Shown piece after piece: positions 1 to 45,879 of a stretch of 55,732 nucleotides of DNA. Every line of letters starts with the position of its first letter. Within the stretch, counting starts at the first letter, position 1. The notes beneath the pieces are model-generated. The model was given only the letters and a program-made list of their open reading frames with translations. It was not told where the DNA came from and searched no databases. Source of the DNA: an uncultured virus (IMG/VR IMGVR_UViG_3300028277_000001) (lineage: Duplodnaviria > Heunggongvirae > Uroviricota > Caudoviricetes); the IMG/VR virus record IMGVR_UViG_3300028277_000001, positions 62,001 to 117,732 of that record; one strand, given 5' to 3'. The translations under genes were made by a program, and so were the position numbers.

Positions 1-1
1 C

Positions 2-250
2 ATCAAGTTCATAAGCATAATGAATTAAATATCCTTTCAATTCAGGATCATCGACCAACATATTATCTTTATCATAAATTGCATAATCTACTAATTCCTG
101 AGTGTCTTTGTCAAGAGGCAAATGACTCGTAATCAAAACATCATACCCAAAAGATTTAAACTGTTTTATAAATTTATGACATACAGACTTTCTTTCTTCA
201 TCAGACAAATAAGCATGTATCAAAATTATTTCATTTGTTTTGTCTATCAT
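2..250 (-). CDS. Hypothetical protein, N-terminal part only (runs off the window edge); possibly glycosyltransferase-associated
   Basis: Own translation from ATG at 250: MIDKTNEIILIHAYLSDEERKSVCHKFIKQFKSFGYDVLITSHLPLDKDTQELVDYAIYDKDN..., open to the edge and starting 6 nt after the previous stop. Confidence 0.7.
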   Translation of the reverse strand, partial: MIDKTNEIILIHAYLSDEERKSVCHKFIKQFKSFGYDVLITSHLPLDKDTQELVDYAIYDKDNMLVDDPELKGYLIHYAYELD

Positions 251-255
251 ATGTT

Positions 256-726
256 TTAAATGTTATTTTGTTGCATTATCCACCCAACTAAAGAATATTT
301 TATTCCTTTTAAAACAGGCTTTACTCTATGTTCTAATTTCGAATCAAACCTAAGACAATCTCCCACACTCAATTCTATGGAATCACTGTCTTTAATTTCA
401 AAAGATCCTCCTCGATATTCAGCATTTAAAGGTATAACACATGTTTCTATTCTTTTACAAGTTGACCGAGCAGTATCAAAATCGTTATGCCAATGATAAT
501 AATTTAACTTAGAATATTCTGAAAACTGAAATACCATATTAGAACTATTAAATTTTTTTTCCAATTCAAAATCATTTAACCAAATAAAAACCTTAGATCT
601 TCTTTCATCAGAAAATTCACTATTTACAACTCTAGCAAAACGAACCTTTTTTCTACAAGATACGATAAGATCAAAACATTCTTCTTTTGTCAATAAGTTT
701 CTAATAATCTGTATTTTTTTGTCCAT
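256..726 (-). CDS. 2OG-Fe(II) oxygenase (prolyl-4-hydroxylase-like)
   Basis: HxD (WHND), YRGG, distal H in EHRVKPV, KYSLVGW C-terminal strand. Confidence 0.85.
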   Translation of the reverse strand: MDKKIQIIRNLLTKEECFDLIVSCRKKVRFARVVNSEFSDERRSKVFIWLNDFELEKKFNSSNMVFQFSEYSKLNYYHWHNDFDTARSTCKRIETCVIPLNAEYRGGSFEIKDSDSIELSVGDCLRFDSKLEHRVKPVLKGIKYSLVGWIMQQNNI

Positions 727-1256
727 TCTTCTGTTTTCATTGCAGGCGCAAAATCATGATTAAATAAACAAATTGAATGTTCCAATTCGTCTCTATTCCA
801 AGGATAAGACCAACACACTTTATCATAAATTTTATAATCTATTTCTCTGTAAATATATTCATCGATGCCTTTCCAATATTTTACTCTGCTATAATCTTCA
901 TCTTCATAAAATTTATCATAAATATGAACATGATTTCCCTTCCACGACATTATTGAAGAGTTTAAAGGGGTATGAAGCGAATCTCTCCACCAGGCAGTAA
1001 GAAGAGTAAAATCGTCTTTAATTAAATGAGATATGGGACCCTTAATAATTATATCTAAATCGAAATATAAATAATTTACATCATTAACACATTCTTTAAA
1101 CATTTGCAATTTATCAAAAACAGCACCTTCTCCATCTCTTATTATATAAACGTTTTCATATTTCAATTTTCCATGTTCACGAATCATATGAAGAATATTA
1201 TCAACATACCACTCATCATATTTATTTCCCGTACATACGAGAACAACGGTTACCAT
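690..1256 (-). CDS. GT-A-fold glycosyltransferase-like protein
   Basis: VCTGNKY..YV N-terminus, YFDLD (DxD), NSSIMSW; paralog of 2480..3205. Confidence 0.7.
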   Translation of the reverse strand: MVTVVLVCTGNKYDEWYVDNILHMIREHGKLKYENVYIIRDGEGAVFDKLQMFKECVNDVNYLYFDLDIIIKGPISHLIKDDFTLLTAWWRDSLHTPLNSSIMSWKGNHVHIYDKFYEDEDYSRVKYWKGIDEYIYREIDYKIYDKVCWSYPWNRDELEHSICLFNHDFAPAMKTEEWTKKYRLLETY

Positions 1257-2104
1257 TTCCCTATCACCATAAATCTGTCATATAACGGTAAGGAGCGTTT
1301 TCCTTTATATAAAACATCTTTAATTTGATTTTTTTCAACCAACTCATTAACATCTTTTACACAATTTATATGATCATCTAACTCAAAATAATTATTTGAT
1401 TGTATTGCTATAGTAGGTTTTATTGGATAATCTTTATAGCAGTCTTTCATTAAAGCAATATCAGCCATATGTTCTGAAGAAGTGTTTATTATTAATTGCC
1501 GTCTTCTCAATTCTGTACGTTCAAAAAAATCTCCAAATTGTGCAATTTTAAATTTTTCATCAAAGTGATTTTTATACTGTGCAAATATTTTATGACAATT
1601 TTCATCCAAATCATATAAATCAATTTGAGATATGTTGAAATTTTTCGACAACATTTCAATTAATGGATATCCAAACCACGAACCGATTATATCAATATGA
1701 AGATCCCCCGAATATTGTATTTTTTTTAGTTCTTGAGAAAGCCACAATTTAGATTCATATTGACCTTGAGATACGGAATCATCAAAATTATTAGAATACG
1801 ACGGCAGATTATTATTAACCCACTGATTAACCCAATAATATGGAGTTTCTCGATTATCATTTTCACACATAGAAATTTTTTCTTTATGTTCTCCAATAGT
1901 ATCTCTAATCGAACCAATTTCTGTATTGTGTTCTCCAATAGTATCTCTAATCGAACCAATTTCTGTATTGTGTTTTCCGATTTCTGTATTGTGTTCTCCA
2001 ATAGTGTCTTTAATCAAACCAATTTGATCATTATAAGATCCTATTTCAATATTATGAAGACTTATATCGTTTTTATTTTTTCGCCAATTATAAATTTGTT
2101 CCAT
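1250..2104 (-). CDS. Class I SAM-dependent methyltransferase-like protein with N-terminal heptad repeats
   Basis: IDIIGSWFG (motif I-like), YDLDE, INTSSEHM, QSNNY; start moved to MEQIY (2104) to limit overlap. Confidence 0.65.
   Translation of the reverse strand: MEQIYNWRKNKNDISLHNIEIGSYNDQIGLIKDTIGEHNTEIGKHNTEIGSIRDTIGEHNTEIGSIRDTIGEHKEKISMCENDNRETPYYWVNQWVNNNLPSYSNNFDDSVSQGQYESKLWLSQELKKIQYSGDLHIDIIGSWFGYPLIEMLSKNFNISQIDLYDLDENCHKIFAQYKNHFDEKFKIAQFGDFFERTELRRRQLIINTSSEHMADIALMKDCYKDYPIKPTIAIQSNNYFELDDHINCVKDVNELVEKNQIKDVLYKGKRSLPLYDRFMVIGKW
1887..2025. repeat. Intragenic tandem repeat (21/42-bp period) encoding GEHNTEI/GSIRDTI heptads
   Basis: Two exact 42-bp copies tgttctccaatagtatctctaatcgaaccaatttctgtattg (1887-1928, 1929-1970), one 21-bp unit, then a diverged partial copy. 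Confidence 0.9.
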
Positions 2105-2507
2105 ATACACAATATTGTTTATATTTTTTATTTTTACATTGTATTTCGAATGAATCAAAAACTTCTGTTAATTCATTATCATCGACCAGTTTATTAATCG
2201 AACAAATAGGATTACAATCACCATTATGTTCTTTATCATCACCTTTTAAAATGAAAATTCCTTTATGCATTCGACCCACAGGATATGTTTTTTCACAATT
2301 ATAATGTAATACACAAGTATGCAATTTAACATCATCAAACACAAAATCATTACACCTAACATTTGACATATATCTAAAATTAATATCATAATTTATATTA
2401 TCAATTTCCATATCCAATCCCCTCAAAGTCTTGATAAACTTAAAATTGGGACAACATAATACAGATATTTTTTCGTGATTTACAGCCCAATAGAATAAGT
2501 TTTCCAT
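2088..2507 (-). CDS. Hypothetical protein, degenerate paralog of the adjacent methyltransferase-like C-terminal half
   Basis: HYNCEK..ILKGDD..DCNPICSINKLVDDN..YCVYG parallels NTSSEH..IQSNN..HINCVKDVNELVEKN..FMVIG. Confidence 0.5.
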   Translation of the reverse strand: MENLFYWAVNHEKISVLCCPNFKFIKTLRGLDMEIDNINYDINFRYMSNVRCNDFVFDDVKLHTCVLHYNCEKTYPVGRMHKGIFILKGDDKEHNGDCNPICSINKLVDDNELTEVFDSFEIQCKNKKYKQYCVYGTNL

Positions 2508-3205
2508 AATTCCTGTACAGGTGATTCATGTAATTCATAGTGTTTGATATCTTTCATATTTTTATTATTGAAAAGATGAGATGTATTGAACAATGTCACT
2601 TTATTTTTTAATTGATATTGTTCTTTATTATAGTTTGAAAATAGGTCTTTTTCCCACAAATTCAATTTATTATTTCTATGATGCTGATAAAACAAATATT
2701 TGTCTAAACTTTTATATGTCCATTTTATCTTTTCCCAATTATTTTTAGTATAAGTTAAAAGCCAAGAAGCTGTCCCTTTATCCCATGCAACAAATGATGA
2801 GTTTGTATGACAAGACACTCCGCGACCATAATTGAATAAACTAATTTTTTCATAATCATTCCAATAGTTCCATATAAATGTAATATTATGATGTTTTCTT
2901 GTTATCAATTCGGTTATATCTTCATGAACCAATACATCTAAATCTATCCAAATATTTTTATCATATTCGTCATTATCAATAAGAAATAATTTTTCATATG
3001 TAAAAACTCTCTTTGTATCATATGGCCTAAGTTCTTGTATATCCTTTGTTTCGATTCTAGAAGATATTCCTCTAGAATCATCAGTATAGCACACAAAATG
3101 AAATGGAACTCGACAATATTTCAACAATCCACCATACGTTCTATTAACATAATCAAAATTATATTTTGTACCCCACTTGAGACAATTAATTTTAATCTTA
3201 TTCAT
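2480..3205 (-). CDS. GT-A-fold glycosyltransferase-like protein
   Basis: CLKWGTKY..YVNR, FVCYTDD, WIDLD, NSSFVAW; start taken at MNKIK (3205), overlapping the upstream stop. Confidence 0.75.
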   Translation of the reverse strand: MNKIKINCLKWGTKYNFDYVNRTYGGLLKYCRVPFHFVCYTDDSRGISSRIETKDIQELRPYDTKRVFTYEKLFLIDNDEYDKNIWIDLDVLVHEDITELITRKHHNITFIWNYWNDYEKISLFNYGRGVSCHTNSSFVAWDKGTASWLLTYTKNNWEKIKWTYKSLDKYLFYQHHRNNKLNLWEKDLFSNYNKEQYQLKNKVTLFNTSHLFNNKNMKDIKHYELHESPVQELWKTYSIGL

Positions 3206-4031
3206 AGATAAACAATGGCTCCATTTTTTTGAACGACTCATCAGGATCATCATATGGCACGTCTTTGACAAACCAAGATTTATCAATTTTATTATACATT
3301 ATAACATCATAAACTAATTGGGCAAACTTCATGTTTTGTTCTGATGTCATGTGATTTAATAAAAAAATATCACTGTTGGACGCTTGACCAACTATATGCC
3401 CAATGGGAATTTTCACATAATCAAAATTACTCGAATCCAAAGAATCAAATATTAACGAATTCAATAATTTGGTAGAGGTTATATTAAAATTTTTATAATA
3501 ACTTATATAATGATCTAAACTAAAACAAGTGAAAACTATAAATCTAATATTTTTAAAGTTGTTAGCTATTAATCGCAAAAAAGAAATATTTTTTACATTT
3601 TCATACAAAAACATTGGTCCTAAAGATTGTGCAATAATTTTAATTTCATTACCAAGTTTTAAAATACTTTCGAAGTTCTGAGACGTGTTCCCCGCAACTT
3701 TTTTCATGAAATGAGCATCTCCCGCATAATCATCTTCTGCTATTTGAAAAATACCATAAGCCGAATCATTTTTATTTTTCAAAAACGAAAAGTTTAGTCT
3801 TTTTTGATCTGACAAAGCCACAAATACTGTATCATGCGGTTTAATAAGTTCTTCTTCTAATTGAAAAACAAGTTTTGTTAAGGCATCATTGGGACCCGAT
3901 CCGGCCTTCCCAAAACCCCGCACGTTTTCCTTTTTCAATACTGACAATCGATGAGGCCAACAACATTTGTCTGTAACATTTTCACAAATACAAGCAAAAC
4001 TATCTCCAAAAATATGAATTGTCATTTCCAC
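3198..4031 (-). CDS. SGNH/GDSL hydrolase-like protein
   Basis: IFGDSF block I, GSGP block II, C-terminal NH. Confidence 0.65.
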   Translation of the reverse strand: MEMTIHIFGDSFACICENVTDKCCWPHRLSVLKKENVRGFGKAGSGPNDALTKLVFQLEEELIKPHDTVFVALSDQKRLNFSFLKNKNDSAYGIFQIAEDDYAGDAHFMKKVAGNTSQNFESILKLGNEIKIIAQSLGPMFLYENVKNISFLRLIANNFKNIRFIVFTCFSLDHYISYYKNFNITSTKLLNSLIFDSLDSSNFDYVKIPIGHIVGQASNSDIFLLNHMTSEQNMKFAQLVYDVIMYNKIDKSWFVKDVPYDDPDESFKKMEPLFIYE

Positions 4032-5062
4032 TGATCTCCAAATGTATCAAACCCTGTACCGCATTTTTCTGCACACACTATTGATTTTCCCTGTGAACAA
4101 GAACTCATATTCCAAGACTGTTCTATTTTTCTGAAAAAACTTCCTTCTATTATTTCATTTAATGGTTTATATAAAGCATTAATGTTTTTAATATCATCTA
4201 GATAATACCATATCTGGTTCTGTCCTAATTGTTCATATAATTTATATAATTTTCCAGCAGTCCAACAACAGGGGGTAACCAATCCCTCTGCTGAAATATA
4301 AATTTCTCTTGACTTTAAAGATTTACATTCTATTCCAGTACTGTCTAAATAATTTTGAAAAGTGCCGTGATAGTTAAGCAGTTTATCATATTCGTTTACA
4401 CTTTTATTTTGATGTTCTTTTTTGATTGGAGGCTTAATTTCATTTCCTTTAATAGTTGTTTTTTTGAATATTTTATCATCTTTATAGCTTTGAACCCATC
4501 TACCAGTTTTTTTCTTTATAAAATCAAGACCGAATAATTTAGCCATACGTTCTGCTTCTTCCACTTGATGCTCATTGTGTTCAAATATCAAAAACACCCA
4601 AACACCTTTTCCGCCTGCTTGCGTAAACACATCCATTGAATTTTCAACTCGGGCCCAATCAACATTTACTCGATATAAATGATTCGTATCATCCAAACCA
4701 TCTACCGAAAAAGACACTCTACCGTGATGTCCAAAAATTCCTGCAAGTCTTTTCCACCAATCATCTGATCGTCCTCCAGCATTTGTAGTCATATGAAGAT
4801 ATAAGTCTTTATTATTATATCGCAACCATTCATATATGTCAAGGGAGTCTTTTGCCGCCAGGGGGTCTCCATGATTGCCACACATGAGAAAACTAGTCAA
4901 TTGTTGTGCTAAACTAACATCGATAATTTGTTTAAATTGATCAATAGAAATTTCAGCATTCTTTATGTGTGGATTATTGGTTCTATCACACATAGGACAC
5001 ATTGCTTGACATTTTTGTGTAGGCTCAAAATGTATATGTCTTATATCATTAAGTCTGTACAT
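4022..5062 (-). CDS. Radical SAM protein with C-terminal twitch/SPASM domain (type A)
   Basis: CQAMCPMC; CGNHGDP; SVDG; PCCW...CAEKC. Confidence 0.9.
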   Translation of the reverse strand: MYRLNDIRHIHFEPTQKCQAMCPMCDRTNNPHIKNAEISIDQFKQIIDVSLAQQLTSFLMCGNHGDPLAAKDSLDIYEWLRYNNKDLYLHMTTNAGGRSDDWWKRLAGIFGHHGRVSFSVDGLDDTNHLYRVNVDWARVENSMDVFTQAGGKGVWVFLIFEHNEHQVEEAERMAKLFGLDFIKKKTGRWVQSYKDDKIFKKTTIKGNEIKPPIKKEHQNKSVNEYDKLLNYHGTFQNYLDSTGIECKSLKSREIYISAEGLVTPCCWTAGKLYKLYEQLGQNQIWYYLDDIKNINALYKPLNEIIEGSFFRKIEQSWNMSSCSQGKSIVCAEKCGTGFDTFGDQWK

Positions 5063-5844
5063 AAATCTTTCGCTTTTTCTAAACAGCTATCAAATCTAGG
5101 AGAACTAAAGTGCCCCTGATTATTAATCTCTTCATTGATATCTATATTTGTGGTATGTGCTATAGTATCAATATTCATTGCTCTAGATAAATGAGTCCAC
5201 ATTCCTTCTGTAGCAAAAATAAAATCAGACATTTGTAATATTTCTACATTTCTAGAATAGTTAAAATCCTCTAAAGGAAAAAATGTTATTTCTGGAAACT
5301 TTCTAATCAAAAAGTCTATCTTCATTCTTTGTTTTTTAGTTACTATATCTTGATTTTTATCATACACCAGATAACAAACTTTTTTTCTTTTTTCTCTAAT
5401 ATCAAAATCAATAGGCCAATACGATCCATCAGTCCATATTTTATTGTACAGCATATTAAAAGTATTATTATAGTAATTACACCCTGTCGGAAGAGATATT
5501 TTTTTAAAATCTTTATCGTAAGTATTCTCGTAGGTATTTTCAATCATTACATGAGCGTCTTGCCATGATATTTTTTTCTTTAAATGCACAGTTGTAATTT
5601 TATTTTTAGGTCTTTTAAACTGAAAAAAATCAATTATTTGATAAAAATCTTCACATAAAAGTTTCTTTGGCTTTGGATGAACGTCCAGTGATTCACACAT
5701 ATAAACGACACTATCACGTTCAAAATAATCCATTACACTTAGAAATGCAGAAACATATACGAACCTATCTCCAAGCCCCCCGTCATTCGGGACAAAATAA
5801 AAAGTTAAAGGATCAGACAAAGAGGATTTATGGAAAACATTCAT
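5041..5844 (-). CDS. Hypothetical protein, GT-B glycosyltransferase-like (GT9/GT11-like motifs)
   Basis: GGLGDR near the N-terminus; SDFIFATEGMWTHLSRAM resembles the GT9 C-terminal motif. Confidence 0.45.
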   Translation of the reverse strand: MNVFHKSSLSDPLTFYFVPNDGGLGDRFVYVSAFLSVMDYFERDSVVYMCESLDVHPKPKKLLCEDFYQIIDFFQFKRPKNKITTVHLKKKISWQDAHVMIENTYENTYDKDFKKISLPTGCNYYNNTFNMLYNKIWTDGSYWPIDFDIREKRKKVCYLVYDKNQDIVTKKQRMKIDFLIRKFPEITFFPLEDFNYSRNVEILQMSDFIFATEGMWTHLSRAMNIDTIAHTTNIDINEEINNQGHFSSPRFDSCLEKAKDLCTDLMI

Positions 5845-6022
5845 ATTTTTTTACATACCATTTAATAACATTTTTATAAAATTGCTGGCTATCATGATCT
5901 GCTTTGAATTGTTTTATGAAGGCACTTGTTGCATTATGATTTGATAATATTATTGAAGAAATGTTTTGCAATTCTCGTAAAGAATAATCTTGTATGATAT
6001 TATCGATTATTTTTTCGTTCAT
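5828..6022 (-). CDS. Small hypothetical protein (64 aa)
   Basis: Fills the gap between coupled minus-strand genes. Confidence 0.6.
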   Translation of the reverse strand: MNEKIIDNIIQDYSLRELQNISSIILSNHNATSAFIKQFKADHDSQQFYKNVIKWYVKKYECFP

Positions 6023-6038
6023 AATTTTCTAAAACAAT

Positions 6039-7112
6039 TTATGAGCATTTCCATAAAGGCAATGAGCAATTTAATTTCTTTTTTGGAATTTTGCTATCTG
6101 CAGAACTCACACACGCATCCGTAATACAAGGTTTTACATCATTAAATAATTTAAATCCTGTTTCAATATTTCCTAAAGGAACATCTCTGCAAGAATAAGA
6201 TCGCTTAATGCTCCCATCAGGCTCACGAATAATACAACTACGATAGCCAGAAGAACACATCCATTCTTTGAAATTATTAAAATTAAACGCATTGAACCTT
6301 TCAGATTGATCAAGATACCATTCATTTCCCTCATCATCATTCATCACAATTTCAAATTCTTGACGAATATTTTTGAGTTTTTTTGATTTAACTTCCATAT
6401 TTGTAATCTGAGGCATTCCATTATGTAGTATATGTATTTGTTCTTTTGTATATCCATCAACAACAAACGTTGCGGTAGGATCACTCTGGGGTTTAAGCGT
6501 TACGTTTATACCTCGTTCATAAAAATAAAGCAGATTTTTATATGTTTCATCAAAAGTTTCTGGTATCATAACAGAATTAATTGTGACACGCACACCATTA
6601 CGTTGACAAAATTCAAGTTTATCAGCAAAACCCTCAAACTTGTCCAGATCAAGATATTCACGATGAAATGATGCGGTAATAGATGCTCTTGTAAATTTTT
6701 TAGCGGATTCGACATATCGTTCAAACCATTTCATAGGCCGAGAACAATTTGATGTCATATGTATAGAAGAATAATTAGTATTATGTACATCATCAGAAAG
6801 ATGCTTAAGTATGTCTAAATATCCTGGATGAAAAGTGGGTTCACCCCCAGATAAGCTAAAATGAAAACTATTAAACCCTCTCTGTCTCGCCTGTAATTTA
6901 ATTTCATCGATTGTTTCAAGACACAACTTAGTGGGCCTATGATCTTTCGTATTGCTTCTAGCATATGGCCAACAATACGAACATCTATAATTACAAAATC
7001 GACCTAACAGCCAGGACACTGTAAATAAGTCAGTATCCAACATTTTCCAGGTCCCAACTCGTTCAATTCTATCCCAAGGTATCTTGGTAAAATCATATTC
7101 ACTTAATTTCAT
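6039..7112 (-). CDS. Radical SAM protein with C-terminal Cys-rich domain (type C)
   Basis: WLLGRFCNYRCSYC; SGGEPT; C-terminal WMC..SC..PC..ACVSSAD. Confidence 0.9.
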   Translation of the reverse strand: MKLSEYDFTKIPWDRIERVGTWKMLDTDLFTVSWLLGRFCNYRCSYCWPYARSNTKDHRPTKLCLETIDEIKLQARQRGFNSFHFSLSGGEPTFHPGYLDILKHLSDDVHNTNYSSIHMTSNCSRPMKWFERYVESAKKFTRASITASFHREYLDLDKFEGFADKLEFCQRNGVRVTINSVMIPETFDETYKNLLYFYERGINVTLKPQSDPTATFVVDGYTKEQIHILHNGMPQITNMEVKSKKLKNIRQEFEIVMNDDEGNEWYLDQSERFNAFNFNNFKEWMCSSGYRSCIIREPDGSIKRSYSCRDVPLGNIETGFKLFNDVKPCITDACVSSADSKIPKKKLNCSLPLWKCS

Positions 7113-8461: not shown

Positions 8462-9399
8462 TAAAATTCTTCATCTATAAATACATCTTGATTAGATTGC
8501 TTGCACGTAGTCCAACATTTTTCCATCGGATTTTTGTTCCAAGAGTTTATTACATAATCATATAATTCTCCCGTCATTACTTCATCAGGAGTATTATATT
8601 TTAAATTAATTTCAAGAGGCCCTCCCAATTCTTGATACTTTTTCATAAATCTAGTTTCTATTTCGTTACCACCATAGACCTGTAAATATTCAGAATTAAA
8701 AAAACAACATGGCAATAATGCTCCAGTATGACTTAAAAAAATTCTTTTTTGATTTCCATATTTACACACTATTTTATGTTCCATCTTTCTAGTTTTAGTC
8801 TTTGATTCTTTATTATCATTTCTATGGGAATATATCAATCTGAAATTTTCAAATCCTTCTTCTTTTGCTATTCGTTTTGCATCATCTATCAAATGCTCAT
8901 TATGTTCAAATGCTATAAATTGCCAAGTCGCATGTCCTCCTGCTTTTATAAATTCTTTCCAATTTTCTTGGATTTTTTTATAATTAGAACCTATTCTATA
9001 TTTTTCTAATGATTTTTGATCAACCCCGTCGATACCAAAAAATATAGATATTCTTCTTTCTCCTAAATTTTTCCAAAATTTCTTAGTTTTGGTTGAACCA
9101 TTAGTTGATATGTTTATATTTACATCATCTAAATAATCTAAAATTTCTAATAATTCAGGATGCAATGTTGGTTCATCTATTGATCCACAAAAATTTATCA
9201 ACTTGCAATTAGGAAAAGTTTTCTTTGTAATCCATTTTTTAATTTGTTTGAGTGATATTACATCTTTATTTAAAACACTGTTTACTTTGTTTCTTTTAAT
9301 TTGACGAAAACATCCAGGACAATCAATATTACAATATGATGTCAATTCTATATCAATCCACTCAATCGTGTCTCTAGACCACATAAACTCTCTTTCCAA
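8461..9399 (-). CDS. Radical SAM protein with C-terminal twitch/SPASM (type A)
   Basis: CNIDCPGC; CGSIDEP; TNG; GIDG; PCCF..CWTTC. Confidence 0.9.
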   Translation of the reverse strand: MEREFMWSRDTIEWIDIELTSYCNIDCPGCFRQIKRNKVNSVLNKDVISLKQIKKWITKKTFPNCKLINFCGSIDEPTLHPELLEILDYLDDVNINISTNGSTKTKKFWKNLGERRISIFFGIDGVDQKSLEKYRIGSNYKKIQENWKEFIKAGGHATWQFIAFEHNEHLIDDAKRIAKEEGFENFRLIYSHRNDNKESKTKTRKMEHKIVCKYGNQKRIFLSHTGALLPCCFFNSEYLQVYGGNEIETRFMKKYQELGGPLEINLKYNTPDEVMTGELYDYVINSWNKNPMEKCWTTCKQSNQDVFIDEEF

Positions 9400-16013: not shown

Positions 16014-16027
16014 GTTATAATTAAATA

Positions 16028-31477: not shown

Positions 31478-31498
31478 TATTATGCTCCAAAATTTAAA

Positions 31499-34912: not shown

Positions 34913-34927
34913 ATTCTAACAATCCAT

Positions 34928-35650: not shown

Positions 35651-35674
35651 ATTTTAAACCACCAAAAAATAAAT

Positions 35675-39679: not shown

Positions 39680-39687
39680 CTAATCCC

Positions 39688-40890
39688 CTAAACAAACGCT
39701 TTTTGTTCATTTATCATAAATTTCAAATAGTTAAAATCATCTAATTCAGAAGCAATATACCATATTTGCTTCTGATTCGCCACATGAAAACAATTATACT
39801 GTATTTTTTCTCTAAATGTTTCTATTTTAGCAGTTAAGTGGTGAGTAGACATAGCTAAAATTGGTTTTATCTGTTTCATAATAGAATCAAATCTTTGATC
39901 AAATGATTTATCATCGAATGAATAATCAAACAATTCTTCATATAGATAAAACCCCGCTTTTTTCAAAAACTGATGCGAATTTCTTGCGCTTAATAATATA
40001 AAAGGTTTATTTAATGAAATAGGTTTAAAAGTTTTTTCTGTTAATGCAATGCTTTCATCAACATATGATTCTGTCACAAGGTCTATACAGCTCTGAATAT
40101 ATTCTAAAGGAACACATCTTTGAAAAGCATCATGCTTTGAAGCAAAAGTTTTTGATATATCTTTCTTTGATCGAAAATTTAGTGGAACTTCACTTTTTTT
40201 CATAAAAAGTAAGGGATCATATATTTCATTTAATTCTGTTAATTCATTTAATAATTCATTATCTTCATCATTATCAAAAACATCTTCCATTTGTTGAGGA
40301 TCTTCAAATGGATAATACGAATACATAAAATTTTCTATGCCACGCAGTGCTTTGATTGTTTTTATTCTCTGATGTTTTTTTGTACTGTTTAATGAAATAA
40401 CATTATATTTTGGTTCATACTCTATTTTTTTATCATCAACAGTTAAACTAAAATTGTTAATATTAACGCATCCTATCTTCGCATTTGAATGGGGTAATTC
40501 AGTTTGCGAAGCACTGGAGGATTCAATCTCATAATCATTAAAAAAACCATACATATAAGGATTAATTAATGGAATAATATCTGTTTTTATTTCATTACAA
40601 GAAATTATTTTTTTTAATCGGTTTAAATTAGACCATATGTTAAAATCTGAAGTGACATAATATACATTTTTATCTTTAAAATCCAGAGTTAAAATATTAT
40701 ATAAGGTATAATCATCAAACTCATCTAATGGAGCAAGTCTATCAGCTTCTGAATCAATGAAAATCACATTTTCGTCATCTGTTTGCAACACTTCATCTAT
40801 AATTGTCTGATCAGCCGAAACACATTTCAATGTTTCTATAACATTTTGTATCGGTACTGTATCAATACACTGGTCAACATGTATTCTCAT
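39688..40890 (-). CDS. Hypothetical protein, glycosyltransferase-like (TEK-motif family)
   Basis: VTES..LTEKTFKP..KPFI..YEELFDYSFD. Confidence 0.55.
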   Translation of the reverse strand: MRIHVDQCIDTVPIQNVIETLKCVSADQTIIDEVLQTDDENVIFIDSEADRLAPLDEFDDYTLYNILTLDFKDKNVYYVTSDFNIWSNLNRLKKIISCNEIKTDIIPLINPYMYGFFNDYEIESSSASQTELPHSNAKIGCVNINNFSLTVDDKKIEYEPKYNVISLNSTKKHQRIKTIKALRGIENFMYSYYPFEDPQQMEDVFDNDEDNELLNELTELNEIYDPLLFMKKSEVPLNFRSKKDISKTFASKHDAFQRCVPLEYIQSCIDLVTESYVDESIALTEKTFKPISLNKPFILLSARNSHQFLKKAGFYLYEELFDYSFDDKSFDQRFDSIMKQIKPILAMSTHHLTAKIETFREKIQYNCFHVANQKQIWYIASELDDFNYLKFMINEQKAFV

Positions 40891-42065
40891 AATAAAAGTT
40901 TTTTTCCATAATGAATTATTTTTAGTGGGACAAGATGTTTATTGGTTTTAAATTCTCTCCAGGGATCCACAACTATACTATCTTTATTAAAATTAAAATC
41001 ATAATGACATCCTCTATGGGCAAGTAAATATGTGCATGGAACATCATTCATATTTTCATCAAAACCCAGTTCAAAATTCGACAATTCATTTACATAATAT
41101 CCCACTAATAACGCATATGAACCATCAGTATAACTTATTTTTGGCTTAAACGACTTTCCCAATATAACAATCGGTAATTTGAAACTCACTAATTTTTCAG
41201 CCAATCTCTTTGCTTGAACCTCTCTAGAAGTCATAATTGCATCAAATAAATCATACCCTAAGTCTAATTTATTTACAAGAAATCTTAAAGCAATATTATC
41301 TCTGGGATGACAGGGACCACCATCTCCCATACCAGGCTTCATATATAATTTACTTATAATCCTCTGTGATGAATTTGACAACGCATTAGCAACTACATCA
41401 CAATCTACATTACCGTTTAGTTCTGCTACATCTTGTATCATATTAACTAAACTAACTTTAGCAGATATAAACGTATTATAAAATATTTTAATACATTCTG
41501 CTTCATCTAGGGTAACCAATTCAAATCTAGTTTTTTTCTTCTGTAAAATTTTTATATAAAACATTTTAAGATCATAAACAATACTTTGAAGTACATTATT
41601 CGATCCCATTATAATCATTTCAGGATTCAGCATATCCCAAGTTGTTGTACCCATAGCAATCAAATATGGATTGTATATAAAATTCACTCCTTTTTTGATT
41701 ATTGGCAAAAAGTCTTTTCTACAGGTTCCAGGTAAAACTGTACTAATTAATACAATAGTCTGACCCTCTCTAATATATTCGTTTATTTGAAGTAAAGCAT
41801 TGATTACGAATTCATACTGAAAATCTTTGGGATCTAAATGCGAGGAAGGCTTGGTTCCATCATAATCTTCATGATGAGGAGTTTCAACCGCTAAAAATAT
41901 AAAGTTGTTATATTGTATTGCATCTTTTATATTTTTATGAATAATAATTTTATTGCTTTTTTTCTCACGCAAATCAAAACCATGCACACAAATATCATCT
42001 TGGGCCATTGCTTCTGCACATTCTAATCCTAATTTACCCAATCCTATAAAACCAACATCAGTCAT
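40887..42065 (-). CDS. UDP-glucose/GDP-mannose dehydrogenase family protein
   Basis: GFIGLGKLG Rossmann motif, AVETP, STVLPGT, KIFYNT, GGPCHPRD; true start MTDVG at 42065. Confidence 0.9.
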   Translation of the reverse strand: MTDVGFIGLGKLGLECAEAMAQDDICVHGFDLREKKSNKIIIHKNIKDAIQYNNFIFLAVETPHHEDYDGTKPSSHLDPKDFQYEFVINALLQINEYIREGQTIVLISTVLPGTCRKDFLPIIKKGVNFIYNPYLIAMGTTTWDMLNPEMIIMGSNNVLQSIVYDLKMFYIKILQKKKTRFELVTLDEAECIKIFYNTFISAKVSLVNMIQDVAELNGNVDCDVVANALSNSSQRIISKLYMKPGMGDGGPCHPRDNIALRFLVNKLDLGYDLFDAIMTSREVQAKRLAEKLVSFKLPIVILGKSFKPKISYTDGSYALLVGYYVNELSNFELGFDENMNDVPCTYLLAHRGCHYDFNFNKDSIVVDPWREFKTNKHLVPLKIIHYGKKLLL

Positions 42066-42280
42066 AGATAAATTTTTCAAGTTTTTCTCCTTCGGTTTTA
42101 TATAGATTTTTATGAAAGGTTTCAGTGAGAGTGGTATCGTAGAAAAAATTTGATAATTTATTAAGCAGAACATCTACTTTTATTTACAACTGGTTATTCT
42201 ATCATATCAAACCACGCACGATAAAATAATGGATTACTCAGCTCATCGCCATAACTATCTCCAAAAATATAAACGATCAT
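42058..42280 (-). pseudogene. Internally deleted SGNH-like pseudogene
   Basis: ATG 42280: MIVYIFGDSYGDELSNPLFYRAWFDMIE*PVVNKSRCSA*; a second frame gives NKLSNFFYDTTLTETFHKNLYKTEGEKLEKFIYD* ending 42058; these match the N- and C-termini of the adjacent SGNH paralogs. Confidence 0.8.
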
Positions 42281-42281
42281 A

Positions 42282-43058
42282 TCATTCGTATATAAAATGG
42301 TCTCTGCCTAAAGAAGGATCATTCCAAGTTGTTAAAATATGTTTATTCCAGATATCATCCAATACAACAGAGTCTGTAGTGAAAAAATTCAAAAGTATAT
42401 TAGTTAAAATTCTATGATTACAAAAAGACAAATGATTAGCCCTGTAATTATGTTTATTGTCGTAATCTTTAAAATTAACAGATTCTTCTATGCTCACATG
42501 ATATAGTGGTTTGATATGAATATTAAAATATTCATCATTTAATTTGCTCAATTCATAAATTTCTTTAACATTAACATAATCATGAACCCCTGTCCTATTA
42601 AATCCAAAACATAAAAAAACCATGATCTTAATTTTTTTTAACTGCGATAATACCTTTAAAAAATAAATGTTTTTTATATTTGCTCTAAAAATTTCTTCTT
42701 TTAAAATTTTATGAGTAAATAAAATTTCATATTCTAAAGATTTTAAAACAGTATCTTTATCTCCTCTTAATACATCCAAACAAATGGGTTGATTATATAA
42801 ATCTATCGGTAGTCTATATTGACAAGATAAAAAAAATATTACTTTATCGGTTATTTTTTTAGTTTCAAAACATTCATAAAAATCTTCAAATATCGTATAT
42901 GGCCCCAACCCACCTTCTGCAAAAGTATGAACTTTTTCTCCTGTTTCGTTCTCCAAAATATCATACCACAAATCTCCTGTTTTCCCATTGAAATAATGGG
43001 GATCTTTTGGAGACCCATCTATTGTCGCAAAACTATCACCGAAAATAAAATAAGTCAT
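42282..43058 (-). CDS. SGNH/GDSL hydrolase-like protein
   Basis: IFGDSF; GGLGP; RANHLSFCNH; ends FIYE. Confidence 0.7.
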   Translation of the reverse strand: MTYFIFGDSFATIDGSPKDPHYFNGKTGDLWYDILENETGEKVHTFAEGGLGPYTIFEDFYECFETKKITDKVIFFLSCQYRLPIDLYNQPICLDVLRGDKDTVLKSLEYEILFTHKILKEEIFRANIKNIYFLKVLSQLKKIKIMVFLCFGFNRTGVHDYVNVKEIYELSKLNDEYFNIHIKPLYHVSIEESVNFKDYDNKHNYRANHLSFCNHRILTNILLNFFTTDSVVLDDIWNKHILTTWNDPSLGRDHFIYE

Positions 43059-43882
43059 TCGTAAATATAATCCACCTTTTTAGTTAATTCATGATATTCA
43101 TCTAAAAAATTAGACTTAAATTCTACCTTTGACCTTAAACCTTTTTCAAAAAAATCGATCATTGCTTTAGCTATTTTATTATGATTCACCTCACTAAAAT
43201 GATTTAATCTGATATCGTTCATATAAATTTTTTCACCTTTTACAAACTTATATGTTACGGGTTCATCAAAATGACATTCTTCATGGTCATAAAATTCTTC
43301 TATTGTCAAAATATTAAAAGGATATTCGAAATAATAGAAATTTTTTGAATTTAAAATATTCAATTGATTATCATCATTAATAAATCCACCATTTGCTTCT
43401 TCAACCTTATCTATACCAAAAGTTAGAGCAACAAAAAATTTAGAATCTGGTAAAAAAAATTCAGACAAACAATATAATAAAAATAAATTTTTATAATTAG
43501 TTAGTCTCATTTCATTAGAATATGTTTTATAAAAAAAATCAACCCTTTTTTTATTCTCTTCTGATAAACTATCTGAGTACAAATACTGTAATCCCATATG
43601 CTTATCCTCTTCTGAAAGAAAATCAAAATCTATTCTTTCTGGGGCAGATAAAAGAAAAATAAATTTATCACCATTTAAATTGAACAACCCCTTTTTATCA
43701 CCGCATAATTGCATAAATTTTTTAAACGTATAATCAGGACCCGAACCAGCTCGAGCAAAATTTACCAACTCTTCATCAAAATACTTCGAAACCTGACGAT
43801 AATAAAGATACTCTGTTTCTTTATAACCCTTTCCGGTAGGTGCTGATCCAAAACTATCTCCAAATAGATATATCATGTTCAA
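43055..43882 (-). CDS. SGNH/GDSL hydrolase-like protein
   Basis: LFGDSF; AGSGP; RLNHFSEVNH; ends YIYE. Confidence 0.7.
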   Translation of the reverse strand: MNMIYLFGDSFGSAPTGKGYKETEYLYYRQVSKYFDEELVNFARAGSGPDYTFKKFMQLCGDKKGLFNLNGDKFIFLLSAPERIDFDFLSEEDKHMGLQYLYSDSLSEENKKRVDFFYKTYSNEMRLTNYKNLFLLYCLSEFFLPDSKFFVALTFGIDKVEEANGGFINDDNQLNILNSKNFYYFEYPFNILTIEEFYDHEECHFDEPVTYKFVKGEKIYMNDIRLNHFSEVNHNKIAKAMIDFFEKGLRSKVEFKSNFLDEYHELTKKVDYIYE

Positions 43883-44202
43883 TATTCATTATATTTTTGT
43901 AATAAGCATTGTTTTTTACAACATTGCGGAGTTGTTTCTAATTTTTGCCATTTCTCAACTGTAATATATTCTCTAAATGTTTTTATTATTTCGTCTATTG
44001 AATGATGTTTTAAAGAATTCCAATTCTTAGGTAATCCATCCAAATATTCATCATAAAAAGTTCCATCTAAAAAATGAAATGCATGAAGAGTGCAACAAGG
44101 ATATACGTGTAAATCACTAGAAATTTCTATTTCGGTCCAGTCATTAACAATAAGCCCTCGATCTCCATGGTTTATACAATACACTACTCTTTCCATGTGC
44201 AA
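43879..44202 (-). CDS. Stand-alone twitch/SPASM Fe-S domain protein
   Basis: VYC..ISSDLHVYPCC..NSLKHHSIDEII..CCKKQC matches the C-terminal domain of the type A enzymes. Confidence 0.75.
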   Translation of the reverse strand: MHMERVVYCINHGDRGLIVNDWTEIEISSDLHVYPCCTLHAFHFLDGTFYDEYLDGLPKNWNSLKHHSIDEIIKTFREYITVEKWQKLETTPQCCKKQCLLQKYNEY

Positions 44203-44468
44203 TTATCTTTACATAAAGGGGGACAGTTATCACTATTCCAAACATCTTCATTTAAAACCTCTTTAAATTGTTTTAAAATATTTTCTAACTTATTAGTTTT
44301 AAGCGAAGTATCAATATGAATTAATACAGTTTCATTTATAATTTTATCTAGACCAATGCCTAGTTTATTTAAATAAAAAAAACAACATGGATATATATTC
44401 AGACCCAAATCTATTTCATATTGTTTCCATTGTTTTAACTCATAATTATAGAAATCACAGTTTATCAT
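44184..44468 (-). CDS. Stand-alone twitch/SPASM Fe-S domain protein
   Basis: INC..IDLGLNIYPCC..SLKTNKLENIL..CPPLCKDNC. Confidence 0.75.
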   Translation of the reverse strand: MINCDFYNYELKQWKQYEIDLGLNIYPCCFFYLNKLGIGLDKIINETVLIHIDTSLKTNKLENILKQFKEVLNEDVWNSDNCPPLCKDNCTWKE

Positions 44469-45160
44469 AGATTAACATAGTTACATTGATGATCTTTTAC
44501 ATCATATTTGTTTAAAATATTTTTCAATTTAATTAAATTTTTTTCTGTTATTTTTAAACAATCTCTCTCATTAATTCTCACCTGCAATTTTATGTTTTTT
44601 TCTCTAGCTAATGCTATAACCTGTTCCACTTCTTGAAAATTATGATCAAATACTGTAAAATCCCATTTTGTAACACGTTGTTTGGCGGATTTAAACATAT
44701 TAGCAAAAGCAAGACTGGTATTAACACCTATTCTATATAATTTATTTGTTTCATGTGTTAAACCATCAATAGCAAACACTAAAAATAACTTTTTATTTTT
44801 TTGTAAAAAAGAATTAATCCATTCGGGAGTTTTTAATCCACCATTCGTATACAATTCTACTCGATCAAAAAAATTTGAAGCTGATATAACCAATTGATCT
44901 ATTTTCGGATGCAGTAAAGGATCACCCAATTCTCCGCAAAACTTCGCAACAATATTATCAGATAGTCTTATGTTTTTTAAATATTTTACATTTTCCCACA
45001 GAAAATTATCAAAATCATCTATTGACAAATGTTTTAATTTTAAATTTTTATCAATAGTTCTAAAACAACTTGGGCATTTAGCATTACAATATGATGTTAT
45101 TTCAAAATTAAATAAAATGAATCTTTGTGCTTTATATCCATCTACGTGTACAACCTCCAT
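44465..45160 (-). CDS. Radical SAM core (type A) without twitch domain
   Basis: EITSYCNAKCPSC; CGELGDP; TNGG; AIDG; FDHN. Confidence 0.88.
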   Translation of the reverse strand: MEVVHVDGYKAQRFILFNFEITSYCNAKCPSCFRTIDKNLKLKHLSIDDFDNFLWENVKYLKNIRLSDNIVAKFCGELGDPLLHPKIDQLVISASNFFDRVELYTNGGLKTPEWINSFLQKNKKLFLVFAIDGLTHETNKLYRIGVNTSLAFANMFKSAKQRVTKWDFTVFDHNFQEVEQVIALAREKNIKLQVRINERDCLKITEKNLIKLKNILNKYDVKDHQCNYVNL

Positions 45161-45879
45161 TAATTACCCAGAGTAAGAGTGCTTACTCCCCCCTCATGTT
45201 TATGTTTTTCGTATAAATAGGTAGCCATACGTTTTCGCTTTTCGTTTATAAGAAATTTTGGTCTTTGATTAAATTTTAAATGAATAGTTATATTATTAGT
45301 TTTCGCAAACGACAATGCATCAGGAATTTCGAAAAAATTATGATTAAAAATTAAAAATTGCCAATAAGTATTGACCCAACCGTTTTTTGTATTAGCAAAA
45401 GCGGCCATATTTGATAAAGCCCGTTCCGTCCTTACTCTTCTTCGATATATTTGATTAGTGTCATCTTTCATACCATCTATTGAAAAAATCATTTCTAAAT
45501 TTTTATACCGTGTACCGAGTTCTTTATAAAAATCAGATTTTCTATTTCCACCGTTTGTAACAATTTTTAAAGTTCCGAAAATAGAACATCCATAATCAAT
45601 AAATTTCATAACTTGAGGATGAACCATAGCATCACCCAATTCCCCCTCAAAAGTAACCACATATCCTTTAAAATTATGCATGTTTTTCTCAATAACCTCC
45701 TTAAAATCCTCAAATTTTATATGTAATTGTCTTAAACTGGGATGTAATTTTTGATTTGGATCCACAGATGAATCCAGAGGAATAGGATCAGAATATGTTC
45801 CATATCTTTTACAAGAAGGACATGCCGCATTACAATAACTTGAAATTGAAAAATCATAAATAATATTTTTATTAATCAT
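45160..45879 (-). CDS. Radical SAM core (type A) without twitch domain
   Basis: CNAACPSC; GELGD; TNGG; SIDG; WQFLIFNHN. Confidence 0.88.
   Translation of the reverse strand: MINKNIIYDFSISSYCNAACPSCKRYGTYSDPIPLDSSVDPNQKLHPSLRQLHIKFEDFKEVIEKNMHNFKGYVVTFEGELGDAMVHPQVMKFIDYGCSIFGTLKIVTNGGNRKSDFYKELGTRYKNLEMIFSIDGMKDDTNQIYRRRVRTERALSNMAAFANTKNGWVNTYWQFLIFNHNFFEIPDALSFAKTNNITIHLKFNQRPKFLINEKRKRMATYLYEKHKHEGGVSTLTLGN

Follow-up and report, generated by a model that had tools for sequence, protein, structure and literature searches.

An island of 18 radical SAM genes in an uncultured marine T4-like phage, putatively encoding a modular system of sugar tailoring and glycosylation

Introduction

T4-like phages rich in radical S-adenosylmethionine (rSAM) genes have been noted before and never explained. 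In CP220 and CPt10, 11-12 rSAM proteins were reported by Timms et al. 2010 (PMC2853527), the available text of which calls them highly unusual and proposes a metabolic boost at low oxygen. According to the accessible parts of later papers, Nishimura et al. 2017 described a marine T4-like genome of 183 kb in which 12 rSAM genes accompany iron-sulphur (Fe-S) assembly genes, Zaragoza-Solas et al. 2020 (PMC7029224) placed rSAM cassettes in a pelagimyophage hypervariable island and read glycosyltransferase (GT)-rich islands as host-surface modification, and the 2025 paper on cyanophage S-SCSM2R (PMC12801897) named a mini-cassette trio 'antibiotic synthesis genes'. In the literature as far as its text was available, no paper was found that assigns a function to rSAM-rich phage islands, or that names the Bdellovibrionota counterpart or the TibC-type enzyme described below. 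The present work concerns a stretch of 55,732 nt, positions 62,001-117,732 of the virus record IMGVR_UViG_3300028277_000001 (called the window throughout; island coordinates follow its numbering), and its island of 18 rSAM genes, which is an extreme and informative variant of such phages.

The observation is real and its context is viral, and the best-supported mechanism is tailoring of sugars in the cytoplasm followed by glycosylation, probably of proteins. More precisely, this hypervariable auxiliary island is proposed to encode a modular, all-cytoplasmic sugar-tailoring and glycosylation system, a reading to which a probability of about 0.45 was given.

Results

Radical SAM genes and their families

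The motif CxxxCxxC was found in 18 of the 60 minus-strand open reading frames (ORFs) of at least 80 amino acids (aa), whereas 1000 shuffles of each protein gave 0.25 on average and never more than 3. Pfam Radical_SAM (PF04055) matched 17 of the 18 at E <= 0.001, 11 of them above the gathering score (29.5 bits), and the 18th (45160-45879) matched at E 0.0029, together with a partial match to NF033640. Of the seven below the gathering score, four passed the NF033640 cut-off and three gave partial or sub-threshold matches only. The count exceeds that of the other phage sequences compared here (11-12 in CP220/CPt10, 12 in the marine environmental viral genome (EVG) and 15 in a complete relative, G001).

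An all-against-all comparison placed the 18 rSAM proteins in four families, namely nine N-terminal-twitch proteins (family A; NF033640, N_Twi), six shorter SPASM-type proteins (family B), two BlsE/MoaA/viperin-like proteins (family C; 6039-7112 and 13427-14587) and one B12-binding protein (family D; 35675-37483). Against the 170-bit cut-off of N_Twi, seven ORFs scored 173.8-389.5 bits and one 160.6 bits; the ninth (16638-17351) is without the twitch domain and matched NF033640 in the core alone. The paralogs are 17-27% identical to 14580-16013 and keep the CxxxCxxC and GGE motifs, and C17, C35, C99 and C102, which lie ahead of the rSAM core and form an auxiliary-cluster Cys set, were invariant across eight aligned paralogs. 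N_Twi was above cut-off in none of 14 control genomes. To our knowledge, no rSAM family of the window, N_Twi included, has a characterised member.

Two of the six family-B proteins were without a C-terminal domain, and two small Cys-rich ORFs come next to them. As these small ORFs resemble detached SPASM/twitch modules, the rSAM enzymes may be split.

BlsE is a nucleoside-sugar decarboxylase. The nearest folds to a model of 6039-7112 (pLDDT 79.3) were BlsE (E 1.5e-8) and MoaA (TM about 0.5), with peptide-modifying SPASM enzymes close behind. Searches of the ESM Atlas with 6039-7112 and with the C-terminal domain of 1250-2158 returned unnamed viral clusters and a weak methyltransferase lead only.

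Viral setting and extent of the island

Exact-match searches placed the window within an 81,410-bp IMG/VR contig. Its G+C content is about 30%, all substantial ORFs lie on the minus strand, and 40 of the 52 gene junctions within 1-45879 overlap, with just two gaps of more than 30 nt. As genes run on for about 10 kb beyond window position 1, the island extends over about 56 kb, from window position 45879 to about 10.2 kb past position 1. It is bounded by rnh on one side and by gp59 and gp32 on the other. On the T4 map rnh and 59 are near neighbours, and the island is therefore an insertion in the replication module.

Past position 1, five unannotated ORFs (two on the opposite strand) are followed by genes for an 887-aa GT4+FkbM-methyltransferase protein and an 1139-aa GT2+GT4+GT9 protein, and then by gp59 (helicase loader), gp32 (single-stranded DNA-binding protein), a 700-aa protein without assignment and structural genes. 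The latter include baseplate hub, tail tube, DNA-end protector, head-closure, and baseplate cap and wedge genes, with gp2-like and gp4-like genes among those recognised. The capsid gene gp23 was not seen on this incomplete contig and was found, at 478 bits, in G001, which is 177 kb long. The RNase H (48123-49028) matched 1668 phage records, with no more than 45% identity to those of phages in culture (Methylophilales phage Melnitz and cyanophages, for example), and a megablast search of two window stretches against cultured phages gave zero matches. The viral, T4-like context was thereby confirmed, and the phage is an uncultured marine T4-like myovirus.

Much of what a first, sequence-only reading had claimed was borne out by these data. 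It had taken the 18 CxxxCxxC ORFs for rSAM genes, had described the cluster as co-oriented, mostly overlapping, directly downstream of T4-type rnh/exonuclease genes and continuing past position 1, and had asked for viral hallmark genes on the contig. All of this agrees with the gene order above, in which a Cas4-like PD-(D/E)XK nuclease lies directly upstream of the island and the continuation carries the giant GTs.

The upstream flank consists of the Cas4-like nuclease, a zinc-ribbon protein, a sugar-1-phosphate nucleotidylyltransferase, DUF6433, T4 RNase H, phrog_11903, a GT4 and eight tRNAs. The tRNA array (Trp, Thr, Ile-tat, Asp, Met, Gly, Ser-gct, Ser-tga) occupies window positions 54532-55729 on the minus strand. 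About 2-2.7 kb past the right end of the window (L090:3477-4142), a PycTM (Pycsar-effector transmembrane domain) protein was recognised at 76 bits, its neighbours being genes for a class-3 lipase, a solute-binding-protein-like ORF and a metallophosphoesterase.

Giant glycosyltransferases and a TibC-like domain

Serines of beta-helical adhesins are O-heptosylated in the cytoplasm by the enzyme TibC. Over its last 350 aa, the 1139-aa GT aligned to residues 40-386 of the 406 of TibC (PDB 4rap) at 229 bits, with four Cys of the motif kept, and this domain lies about 9.1-10.2 kb beyond window position 1. Among the matches listed at E <= 0.001 for this C-terminus, none was a lipopolysaccharide (LPS) heptosyltransferase. 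A similar domain ends a 1226-aa GT4/FkbM/TibC_1st/GT9 protein of Microcystis phage Mel-JY01 (labelled FkbM methyltransferase in the record), whose gene adjoins that of a 'structural protein', with a cytidylyltransferase-like gene near and the terminase 7 kb away. TibC-like domains 33-41% identical to that on the window's contig were also seen in LR756501, LR756503 and LR756504, uncultured phages of 636-735 kb. GT2 (PF00535) gave no match over cut-off in four viral relatives, so the giant GTs are not a constant of the lineage. A literature search combining autotransporter heptosyltransferase and phage found no paper on a TibC-type enzyme in a phage.

A cellular counterpart in Bdellovibrionota

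When GTDB genomes were searched with aligned orthologs of 14580-16013, 70 loci were recovered. Seven of them (55-87% identity, in metagenome-assembled genomes (MAGs) of assorted phyla, with many island genes in common) are probably misbinned phage contigs. Nearly all the others came from Bdellovibrionales, Bacteriovoracaceae and Halobacteriovoraceae, with identities near 50%, and complete chromosomes and an isolate were among them. Against the 63 loci that remain once the seven phage-like contigs are set aside, the window proteins were compared in turn: homologs of 14580-16013 were present in 62 (best identity 55%), of 6039-7112 in 45 (61%), of 4022-5062 in 45 (43%) and of the C-terminal domain of 1250-2158 in 27 (about 32%). 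Clustering of 891 ORFs from 57 loci (L023-L079) recovered the three rSAM families in 54, 40 and 42 loci, the remainder being variable. Cellular loci held at most 11 CxxxCxxC ORFs per 21 kb; the densest (L072), with 11 in 21 kb, lies outside Bdellovibrionota on a 1.27-Mb contig of a MAG labelled Candidatus Parcubacteria.

In the Bdellovibrio isolate G005, six of the seven N_Twi genes fall within 37 kb, in an island with 11 CxxxCxxC ORFs. It carries orthologs of 4022-5062 (38%), 6039-7112 (54%) and 14580-16013 (51%), as well as the amidinotransferase (38%), the nucleoside diphosphate (NDP)-sugar dehydrogenase (46%), the PLP-like protein (41%; PLP, pyridoxal phosphate) and the methyltransferase-like domain of the window. 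Pfam annotation of 30 of its 47 ORFs gave two UDPG/MGDP dehydrogenases, two epimerase/dehydratases, a DegT aminotransferase, a polysaccharide lyase, a 1965-aa protein bearing an S74 chaperone domain, a fatty-acid hydroxylase and a Glyco_transf_7C-type protein; four GT2s were seen in the annotation of cellular loci described next, and a seven-segment hydrophobic protein is also encoded. The phage island is thus homologous to a cellular NDP-sugar/polysaccharide island.

Pfam annotation of ten cellular loci (51 ORFs, then 133 of 152 ORFs, leaving out 16 ORFs of L040 and three small ORFs) also showed QueC-like, B12-rSAM, fatty-acid desaturase, Asp/Asn-hydroxylase, TauD, amine-oxidase and SIS genes. 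Adjacency to a fibre protein was considered as a general rule and rejected, S74-type fibre homologs being present in 3 of 57 cellular loci only. The distribution is patchy: of 201 genomes sampled from the phylum, 9 had the 6039-7112 family. On one complete Bdellovibrionales chromosome (L078), a lone N_Twi ortholog lies between an Eco57I/MmeI-type restriction-modification methylase and transposases, far from rSAM clusters. A literature search found no paper on an rSAM-rich island in Bdellovibrionota.

Smaller versions in cultured phages

The CP220 record shows a module of six rSAM genes, an amidinotransferase and two GT-A genes, with 29% identity to the window in the amidinotransferase and 25-29% in rSAM proteins of family B. 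Cyanophage S-SCSM2R (PQ898602) combines five GTs, an aminotransferase, an rSAM gene, 2-oxoglutarate (2OG) oxygenases and an inosamine amidinotransferase (36% identity), with a PrnA-type halogenase near. A sugar or glycan context was accordingly found in four independent settings, the window's contig, the Bdellovibrio isolate island, S-SCSM2R and CP220.

Variation, selection and RNA libraries

Orthologs of 14580-16013 were carried by 15 viral loci with mosaic surrounding gene content. G001 shares the order rnh, island, gp59/gp32 with the window's contig; it has 15 Radical_SAM matches at E <= 0.001 and keeps a collinear core of eight rSAM genes at 45-78% identity. The modularity of the island was further apparent from its 31.5-43 kb block (carbamoyltransferase-side oxygenases, B12-rSAM, amidinotransferase and several unannotated ORFs), the homologs of which lie at a separate G001 locus, at 122-135 kb. 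Two adjacent A-type Fe-S carrier genes (G001:C1:138071-138683) match the published link of rSAM-rich T4-like marine genomes with phage Fe-S assembly genes. On the gp59 side of the G001 island (L091:2214-6631), dCTP-deaminase-like, strong QueC-like, GTP cyclohydrolase I (FolE) and endonuclease genes were seen, a 7-deazaguanine-type set without a detectable tRNA-guanine transglycosylase (TGT)/DpdA.

Island genes are under strong purifying selection. The dN/dS ratio (NG86) was 0.061-0.167 in 33 of 41 ortholog pairs (of the others, seven had saturated dS and one gave no value), and that of the flanking RNase H was 0.167. Part of the core block was contained in 15 RNA-library runs from 12 studies, of which six runs from three studies held 36-69% of the sampled words; runs with small word shares (X7-X15) were not used. 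Contigs at least 99% identical were obtained over window positions 4001-24000 from four marine RNA libraries (three studies), covering 29, 30, 28 and 26 of 30 bins. Relaxed selection and lack of expression had been named by the sequence-only reading as signs that would speak against a working system; the dN/dS values of the 33 pairs show no relaxation, and as to expression the sequence is present in marine RNA libraries, but such contigs do not prove transcription.

In RNA-library contigs of two runs (X1 and X5), window positions 9994 and 12375 were joined with 24 other letters between them, at depths of 41 and 185. As each end falls within an N_Twi paralog, the join points to either a strain without a 2.4-kb cassette or a recombinant between paralogs.

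Other genes of the island

The features of the window are collected in Table 1. The families named by the sequence-only reading fared unevenly. Hidden Markov model (HMM) or PDB sequence searches supported the nitroreductases, halogenase, carbamoyltransferase, AMP-binding enzyme, oxygenases, sugar dehydrogenase, amidinotransferase and, weakly, the QueC-like protein, while its 'PLP enzymes' and its GT-, SGNH- and methyltransferase-like genes inside 1-45879 were weakly supported, at the level of partial matches, motifs or an Atlas lead. The two PLP-like ORFs (10619-11455 and 34037-34912), for example, gave partial matches only, at E 5.6e-6 to 0.2. Its abundance of GTs within 1-45879 was overstated, the strong GTs lying at 50169-51155 and past position 1.

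PDB sequence searches of 38447-39679, 39688-40890, 29673-30782, 1250-2158, a Bdellovibrio cluster-3 protein and the 887-aa GT gave nothing usable. In 1250-2158, imperfect tandem repeats (IGEHNTEIGSIRDT-like) occupy residues ~38-104, ahead of the methyltransferase-like domain, and account for weak matches to TigB (E 6.6e-4) and to filament-type proteins. Upstream of the sugar dehydrogenase, a 108-nt gap contains a 28-aa ORF beginning MIVYIFGDSYGDE (42194-42280), which resembles what is left of the N-terminus of a further SGNH-like paralog. In a crude Kyte-Doolittle scan of 84 proteins in all, every island protein had fewer than two strong hydrophobic segments.

Table 1. Features of the window, in window coordinates, with the matches or observations noted for each
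Position	Strand	Feature	Evidence or remark
2..250	-	5' part of a 363-aa unannotated ORF running off the left end of the window	without Pfam or PHROG match
256..726	-	2OG-Fe(II) oxygenase	PF13640 49 bits; phrog_61
690..1256	-	GT-A-like protein (weak)	phrog_1962 glycosyltransferase E 1e-5; D-x-D-like motif
1250..2158	-	N-terminal imperfect IGEHNTEIGSIRDT-like repeats and methyltransferase-like C-terminal domain	domain common to Bdellovibrionota islands; Atlas lead only
2088..2507	-	Cys-rich 139-aa unannotated ORF	
2480..3286	-	GT-A-like protein (weak)	phrog_1962 E 1.7e-4
3198..4031	-	SGNH-like protein, paralog of 42282-43058 and 43055-43882	GDS motif; without HMM support
4022..5062	-	rSAM family B, C-terminal SPASM type	PF04055 36.9 bits; one of three rSAMs conserved in Bdellovibrionota
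5041..5844	-	unannotated 267-aa ORF	
5828..6022	-	64-aa helical small ORF directly after rSAM 6039-7112	conserved in phage lineage only; not precursor-like
6039..7112	-	rSAM family C, most conserved of the shared trio	~55-64% identity to Bdellovibrionota orthologs
7109..8461	-	N_Twi rSAM, family A	NF033640 208.6 bits
8461..9399	-	rSAM family B	PF04055 42.5 bits; 25-29% identity to CP220 rSAMs
9348..10622	-	N_Twi rSAM, family A	NF033640 263.8 bits
10619..11455	-	short fold-type-I PLP-like protein (weak)	41% identity to Bdellovibrio island homolog
11456..12487	-	N_Twi rSAM, family A	NF033640 211.6 bits
12484..13449	-	rSAM family B with SPASM domain	Pfam
13427..14587	-	rSAM family C, distant paralog of 6039-7112	
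14580..16013	-	best N_Twi rSAM match	NF033640 389.5 bits; 78-90% in phage relatives, ~50% in Bdellovibrionota
16028..16645	-	nitroreductase-family protein	PF00881
16638..17351	-	short N_Twi-type rSAM without N-terminal twitch domain	
17344..18144	-	QueC-like PP-loop ATPase (weak)	PF06508 26 bits, C-terminal part only; phrog_1550
18134..19183	-	N_Twi rSAM just under family cut-off	NF033640 160.6 bits
19180..19926	-	unannotated 248-aa ORF	
19892..20836	-	rSAM family B with SPASM domain	Pfam
20829..21899	-	N_Twi rSAM, family A	NF033640 184.2 bits
21859..23699	-	three unannotated ORFs (257, 160, 213 aa)	61-80% conserved in L010 and L011
23681..24823	-	N_Twi rSAM, family A	NF033640 173.8 bits
24823..25566	-	unannotated 247-aa ORF	
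25568..26668	-	N_Twi rSAM, family A	NF033640 177.3 bits
26665..27192	-	unannotated 175-aa ORF	
27179..28126	-	adenylate-forming enzyme fragment, 315 aa	PF00501 45 bits, profile positions 166-349
28137..29393	-	flavin-dependent halogenase, Trp_halogenase family	PF04820 206.8 bits; 25% identity to 'PrnA' of cyanophage S-SCSM2R
29390..30782	-	two unannotated ORFs (102, 369 aa)	
30794..31477	-	nitroreductase-family protein	PF00881
31507..32268	-	possible 2OG oxygenase	weak 'sporadic carbohydrate cluster' TIGR04324, E 1e-5, short stretch
32268..33632	-	NodU/TobZ-type carbamoyltransferase (N and C domains)	PF16861 162.8 bits; PF02543 99 bits
33625..34113	-	162-aa ORF, possibly cupin-like	PF05118 E 0.021 only
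34037..34912	-	PLP-like paralog of 10619-11455 (weak)	
34928..35650	-	2OG-Fe(II) oxygenase	PF13640 46 bits
35675..37483	-	B12-binding rSAM, KedN5-like C-methyltransferase type, family D	NF033712 206.7 bits (cut-off 700); PF04055, PF02310
37453..38466	-	StrB1-type inosamine-phosphate amidinotransferase homolog	PDB 1bwd E 1.8e-84, 287 bits
38447..40890	-	two unannotated ORFs (410, 400 aa)	multi-copy in second island of G001
40887..42173	-	NDP-sugar dehydrogenase	TIGR03026 140.7 bits; PF00984, PF03721; 46% identity to Bdellovibrio island gene
42282..43882	-	two SGNH-like paralogs (258, 275 aa)	
43879..44468	-	two paralogous small Cys-rich ORFs (107, 94 aa)	SPASM E 0.016
44465..45879	-	two short family-B rSAM cores (231, 239 aa) without C-terminal SPASM	
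45890..46821	-	Cas4-like PD-(D/E)XK nuclease and zinc-ribbon protein	upstream flank, syntenic in G001
46852..47568	-	sugar-1-phosphate nucleotidylyltransferase	PF00483 44.8 bits; NCBIfam matches
48123..49028	-	T4-type RNase H/flap endonuclease, backbone gene	PF02739, PF09293
50169..51155	-	GT4 glycosyltransferase	PF00534 49 bits

Discussion

The glycan-decorating system that the sequence-only reading had proposed is the best supported of the options, because of the giant GTs past position 1, the NDP-sugar/polysaccharide locus of Bdellovibrio, and the mini-versions that stand beside GTs in two cultured phages. We infer the substrates of the rSAM enzymes, the order of the steps and the acceptor as follows. 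In a first stage, unusual sugars, most likely nucleotide-activated, would be made. Activation and oxidation would be carried out by the nucleotidylyltransferase and the NDP-sugar dehydrogenase, amination by the PLP-like proteins, and decoration by amidino transfer (StrB1-like), O-carbamoylation (NodU/TobZ-like), C-methylation (B12-rSAM) and hydroxylation (2OG oxygenases), possibly with a halogenated acyl or aryl group added via the adenylating enzyme and the halogenase. Each of the other 17 rSAM enzymes (nine N-terminal-twitch, six SPASM and two BlsE/MoaA-like) could perform a different radical step on the sugar, candidate steps being oxidation, epimerisation, deoxygenation and C-C chemistry. 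In a second stage, for which homology gives partial support, the sugars would be assembled into a glycan by the phage GTs. The TibC-type protein O-heptosyltransferase domain fused to GT2/GT4 points to a protein acceptor in this genotype, and a protein is favoured over DNA or the host surface on the strength of that homology; the likeliest acceptors would be the phage's own structural or adhesin proteins. As cassettes are swapped among related phages, the glycan would differ between strains.

Several observations weigh against this proposal. Enzyme substrates in the island are predicted from homology, and a model of 14580-16013 (pLDDT 78.8) matched only generic SPASM/twitch rSAM proteins, RiPP maturases included (RiPP, ribosomally synthesised and post-translationally modified peptide), the top match being SkfB (E 4e-5) with TM <= 0.4, so that no functional assignment follows from these neighbours. 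The island lies in the replication module, away from the tail-fibre genes, and no candidate acceptor protein was identified. In the ten annotated cellular loci, GTs occurred within 10 kb on either side of the conserved rSAM gene in three only. The TibC-like domain was found in just 4 of 50,697 phage records and not in the complete relative G001, so a protein acceptor cannot be assumed for the lineage as a whole. Between the giant GTs and the rSAM block lie two ORFs on the opposite strand, and the two parts may therefore not form one operon. Lastly, the RNA-library contigs record presence and not transcription, strand or level, and may derive from DNA carry-over.

The same sugars or glycan might instead be fed into the LPS, O-antigen or capsule of the host, altering receptors and blocking superinfection. 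Such remodelling is how GT-rich hypervariable islands with rSAM cassettes are read in the available text of the pelagimyophage paper (PMC7029224), cyanophage 'LPS genes' being interpreted alike, it would suit a Bdellovibrio counterpart that resembles a polysaccharide locus (polysaccharide lyase, seven-segment hydrophobic protein), and island variability fits an arms race at the cell surface. It is nevertheless unlikely. The profile matches include no flippase (Wzx), no polymerase (Wzy), no ligase (WaaL), no ABC permease, no polyprenyl-phosphate GT and no GtrA/B/C-type membrane protein, and all island proteins look soluble; moreover, the sole heptosyltransferase-type domain is of the protein-modifying TibC type and not of the LPS type, and the phage is of the lytic T4 type. 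Still less probable is a diffusible, aminoglycoside- or nucleoside-like pseudo-oligosaccharide that would inhibit competing phages or microbes or manipulate the host. The StrB1-type amidinotransferase, the TobZ/NodU-type carbamoyltransferase, the B12-rSAM and the twitch rSAM proteins do recall aminoglycoside pathways, an adenylating enzyme and a halogenase are present, and the label 'antibiotic synthesis genes' was chosen by the S-SCSM2R authors in the part of their paper available (PMC12801897). However, no ORF matched a cyclitol-forming enzyme (2-deoxy-scyllo-inosose or inositol-phosphate synthase), an exporter or a self-resistance gene in Pfam/NCBIfam, the cellular counterpart is a polysaccharide-type locus, and at least seven GT domains, one of a protein-glycosylating type, point to a polymer or a protein-linked glycan.

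Location is the chief argument for a glycan or sugars on phage DNA as protection against host nucleases (compare T4 glucosyl-hydroxymethylcytosine (hmC), glycan-hmC and thymidine hypermodification), the island being inserted in the replication module between rnh and gp59/gp32 with a Cas4-like nuclease adjacent and, in G001, with FolE, strong QueC-like and dCTP-deaminase-like genes at the same junction. CP220, which has the rSAM/amidinotransferase module in common, has DNA fully substituted with 2'-deoxy-7-amido-7-deazaguanosine (dADG), and virus GTs that place glycans on DNA are the subject of a preprint, each according to the portion of the source available. Against this, neither a ThyA-family hydroxymethylase (PF00303) nor TGT/DpdA (PF01702) was detected in any of four genomes (G001 and three partial relatives), although divergent DpdA3/4 could escape and the window's own genome is incomplete; the silence of Tet_JBP (PF12851) in all four carries no weight, as the control genomes were silent too. 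With a chromosomal sugar locus as the Bdellovibrionota counterpart and a TibC-type domain that targets protein, DNA appears a very unlikely acceptor. Least probable of all is that the SPASM/twitch rSAM enzymes, a classic class of RiPP maturases, modify ribosomal peptides here. SkfB was the best Foldseek match of 14580-16013, a conserved 64-aa ORF follows 6039-7112, and a TigB-like match was seen in 1250-2158, but the last is due to repeats. When 13,463 small ORFs were clustered, drawn from 64 genome-contig loci, 12 viral loci, 60 kb of G001 and the window itself, no small ORF was common to phage and cellular clusters, although very divergent precursors could escape; the sole conserved non-shadow family (5828-6022) occurred in six phage-lineage loci and none of Bdellovibrionota, and is not core-peptide-like, in agreement with the absence of a clear precursor peptide noted from the sequence alone. 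No ORF matched PqqD/RRE (RRE, RiPP recognition element), a leader protease or a transporter in Pfam/NCBIfam, and the sugar enzymes and GTs co-vary with the rSAM genes.

Returning to sugar tailoring and protein glycosylation, a bolder and rather doubtful extension is that the N_Twi family, 4022-5062 and 6039-7112 could constitute a hitherto unrecognised radical sugar-diversifying engine common to two sorts of predator of bacteria, T4-like phages and Bdellovibrionota. Each paralog would add its own modification and cassettes would be shuffled among strains, to give a variable glycan code placed in the cytoplasm straight onto the predator's own attachment or virion proteins, begun here by the TibC-type heptosyltransferase in what would be the first phage use of that route. 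If the rSAM enzymes do act on sugars, known radical carbohydrate chemistry would be greatly widened. A phage TibC-type protein glycosyltransferase, if true, would represent a new route of virion or host-protein glycosylation, with a bearing on host range, on the avoidance of recognition by abundant marine phages, and on the reason for their Fe-S assembly genes. A cultivable Bdellovibrio and three cultured phages (S-SCSM2R, CP220 and Mel-JY01) make an observation unexplained since 2010 testable.

Among described phages, CP220 and CPt10 resemble the present phage in being T4-like and in having, according to the accessible text on them, an interchangeable module of five rSAM genes and an amidinotransferase next to two GT-A genes. 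That module is smaller, however, and at the cut-offs used only family-B rSAM proteins were matched, with no match for the N_Twi rSAM proteins, carbamoyltransferase, halogenase or giant GTs of the window. The pelagimyophage 'host recognition cluster', as described in the available part of that work, is likewise a hypervariable island (~35-45 kb) of marine T4-like myoviruses with GTs and rSAM cassettes, but it lies between VrlC and gp14 with tail fibres, whereas the present island lies between rnh and gp59/gp32, is dominated by its 18 rSAM genes, and yielded no recognised tail fibre in profile searches. S-SCSM2R, which is in culture, differs in having one rSAM gene as against 18, and the conserved rSAM trio was not detected in it.

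The Bdellovibrionota island has the rSAM trio, the methyltransferase-like domain, the PLP-like protein, the NDP-sugar dehydrogenase and the amidinotransferase in common with the phage, but is cellular and further encodes sugar-nucleotide enzymes of the classical kind, the 1965-aa fibre-like protein, a polysaccharide lyase and a membrane protein with several passes. Aminoglycoside-type tailoring (StrB1, TobZ, BtrN, GenK) is similar in its amidinotransferase, carbamoyltransferase, twitch rSAM and B12-rSAM methyltransferase types, but the phage island has many polymer-type GTs and no match for a cyclitol synthase, exporter or resistance gene. Relative to TibC/AAH, the phage domain has near full-length homology and the Cys-rich motif but is phage-encoded, fused to GT2 and GT4 and without an autotransporter substrate, heptosyl transfer being predicted from its sequence. 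The multi-domain GT-methyltransferase enzymes of chloroviruses and mimiviruses, and the capsid and tail glycosylation of mycobacteriophages, are virus-encoded, cytoplasmic and independent of membrane export. We know of no rSAM-based sugar tailoring in those systems; the island resembles them in its soluble, multi-domain GT and methyltransferase enzymes.

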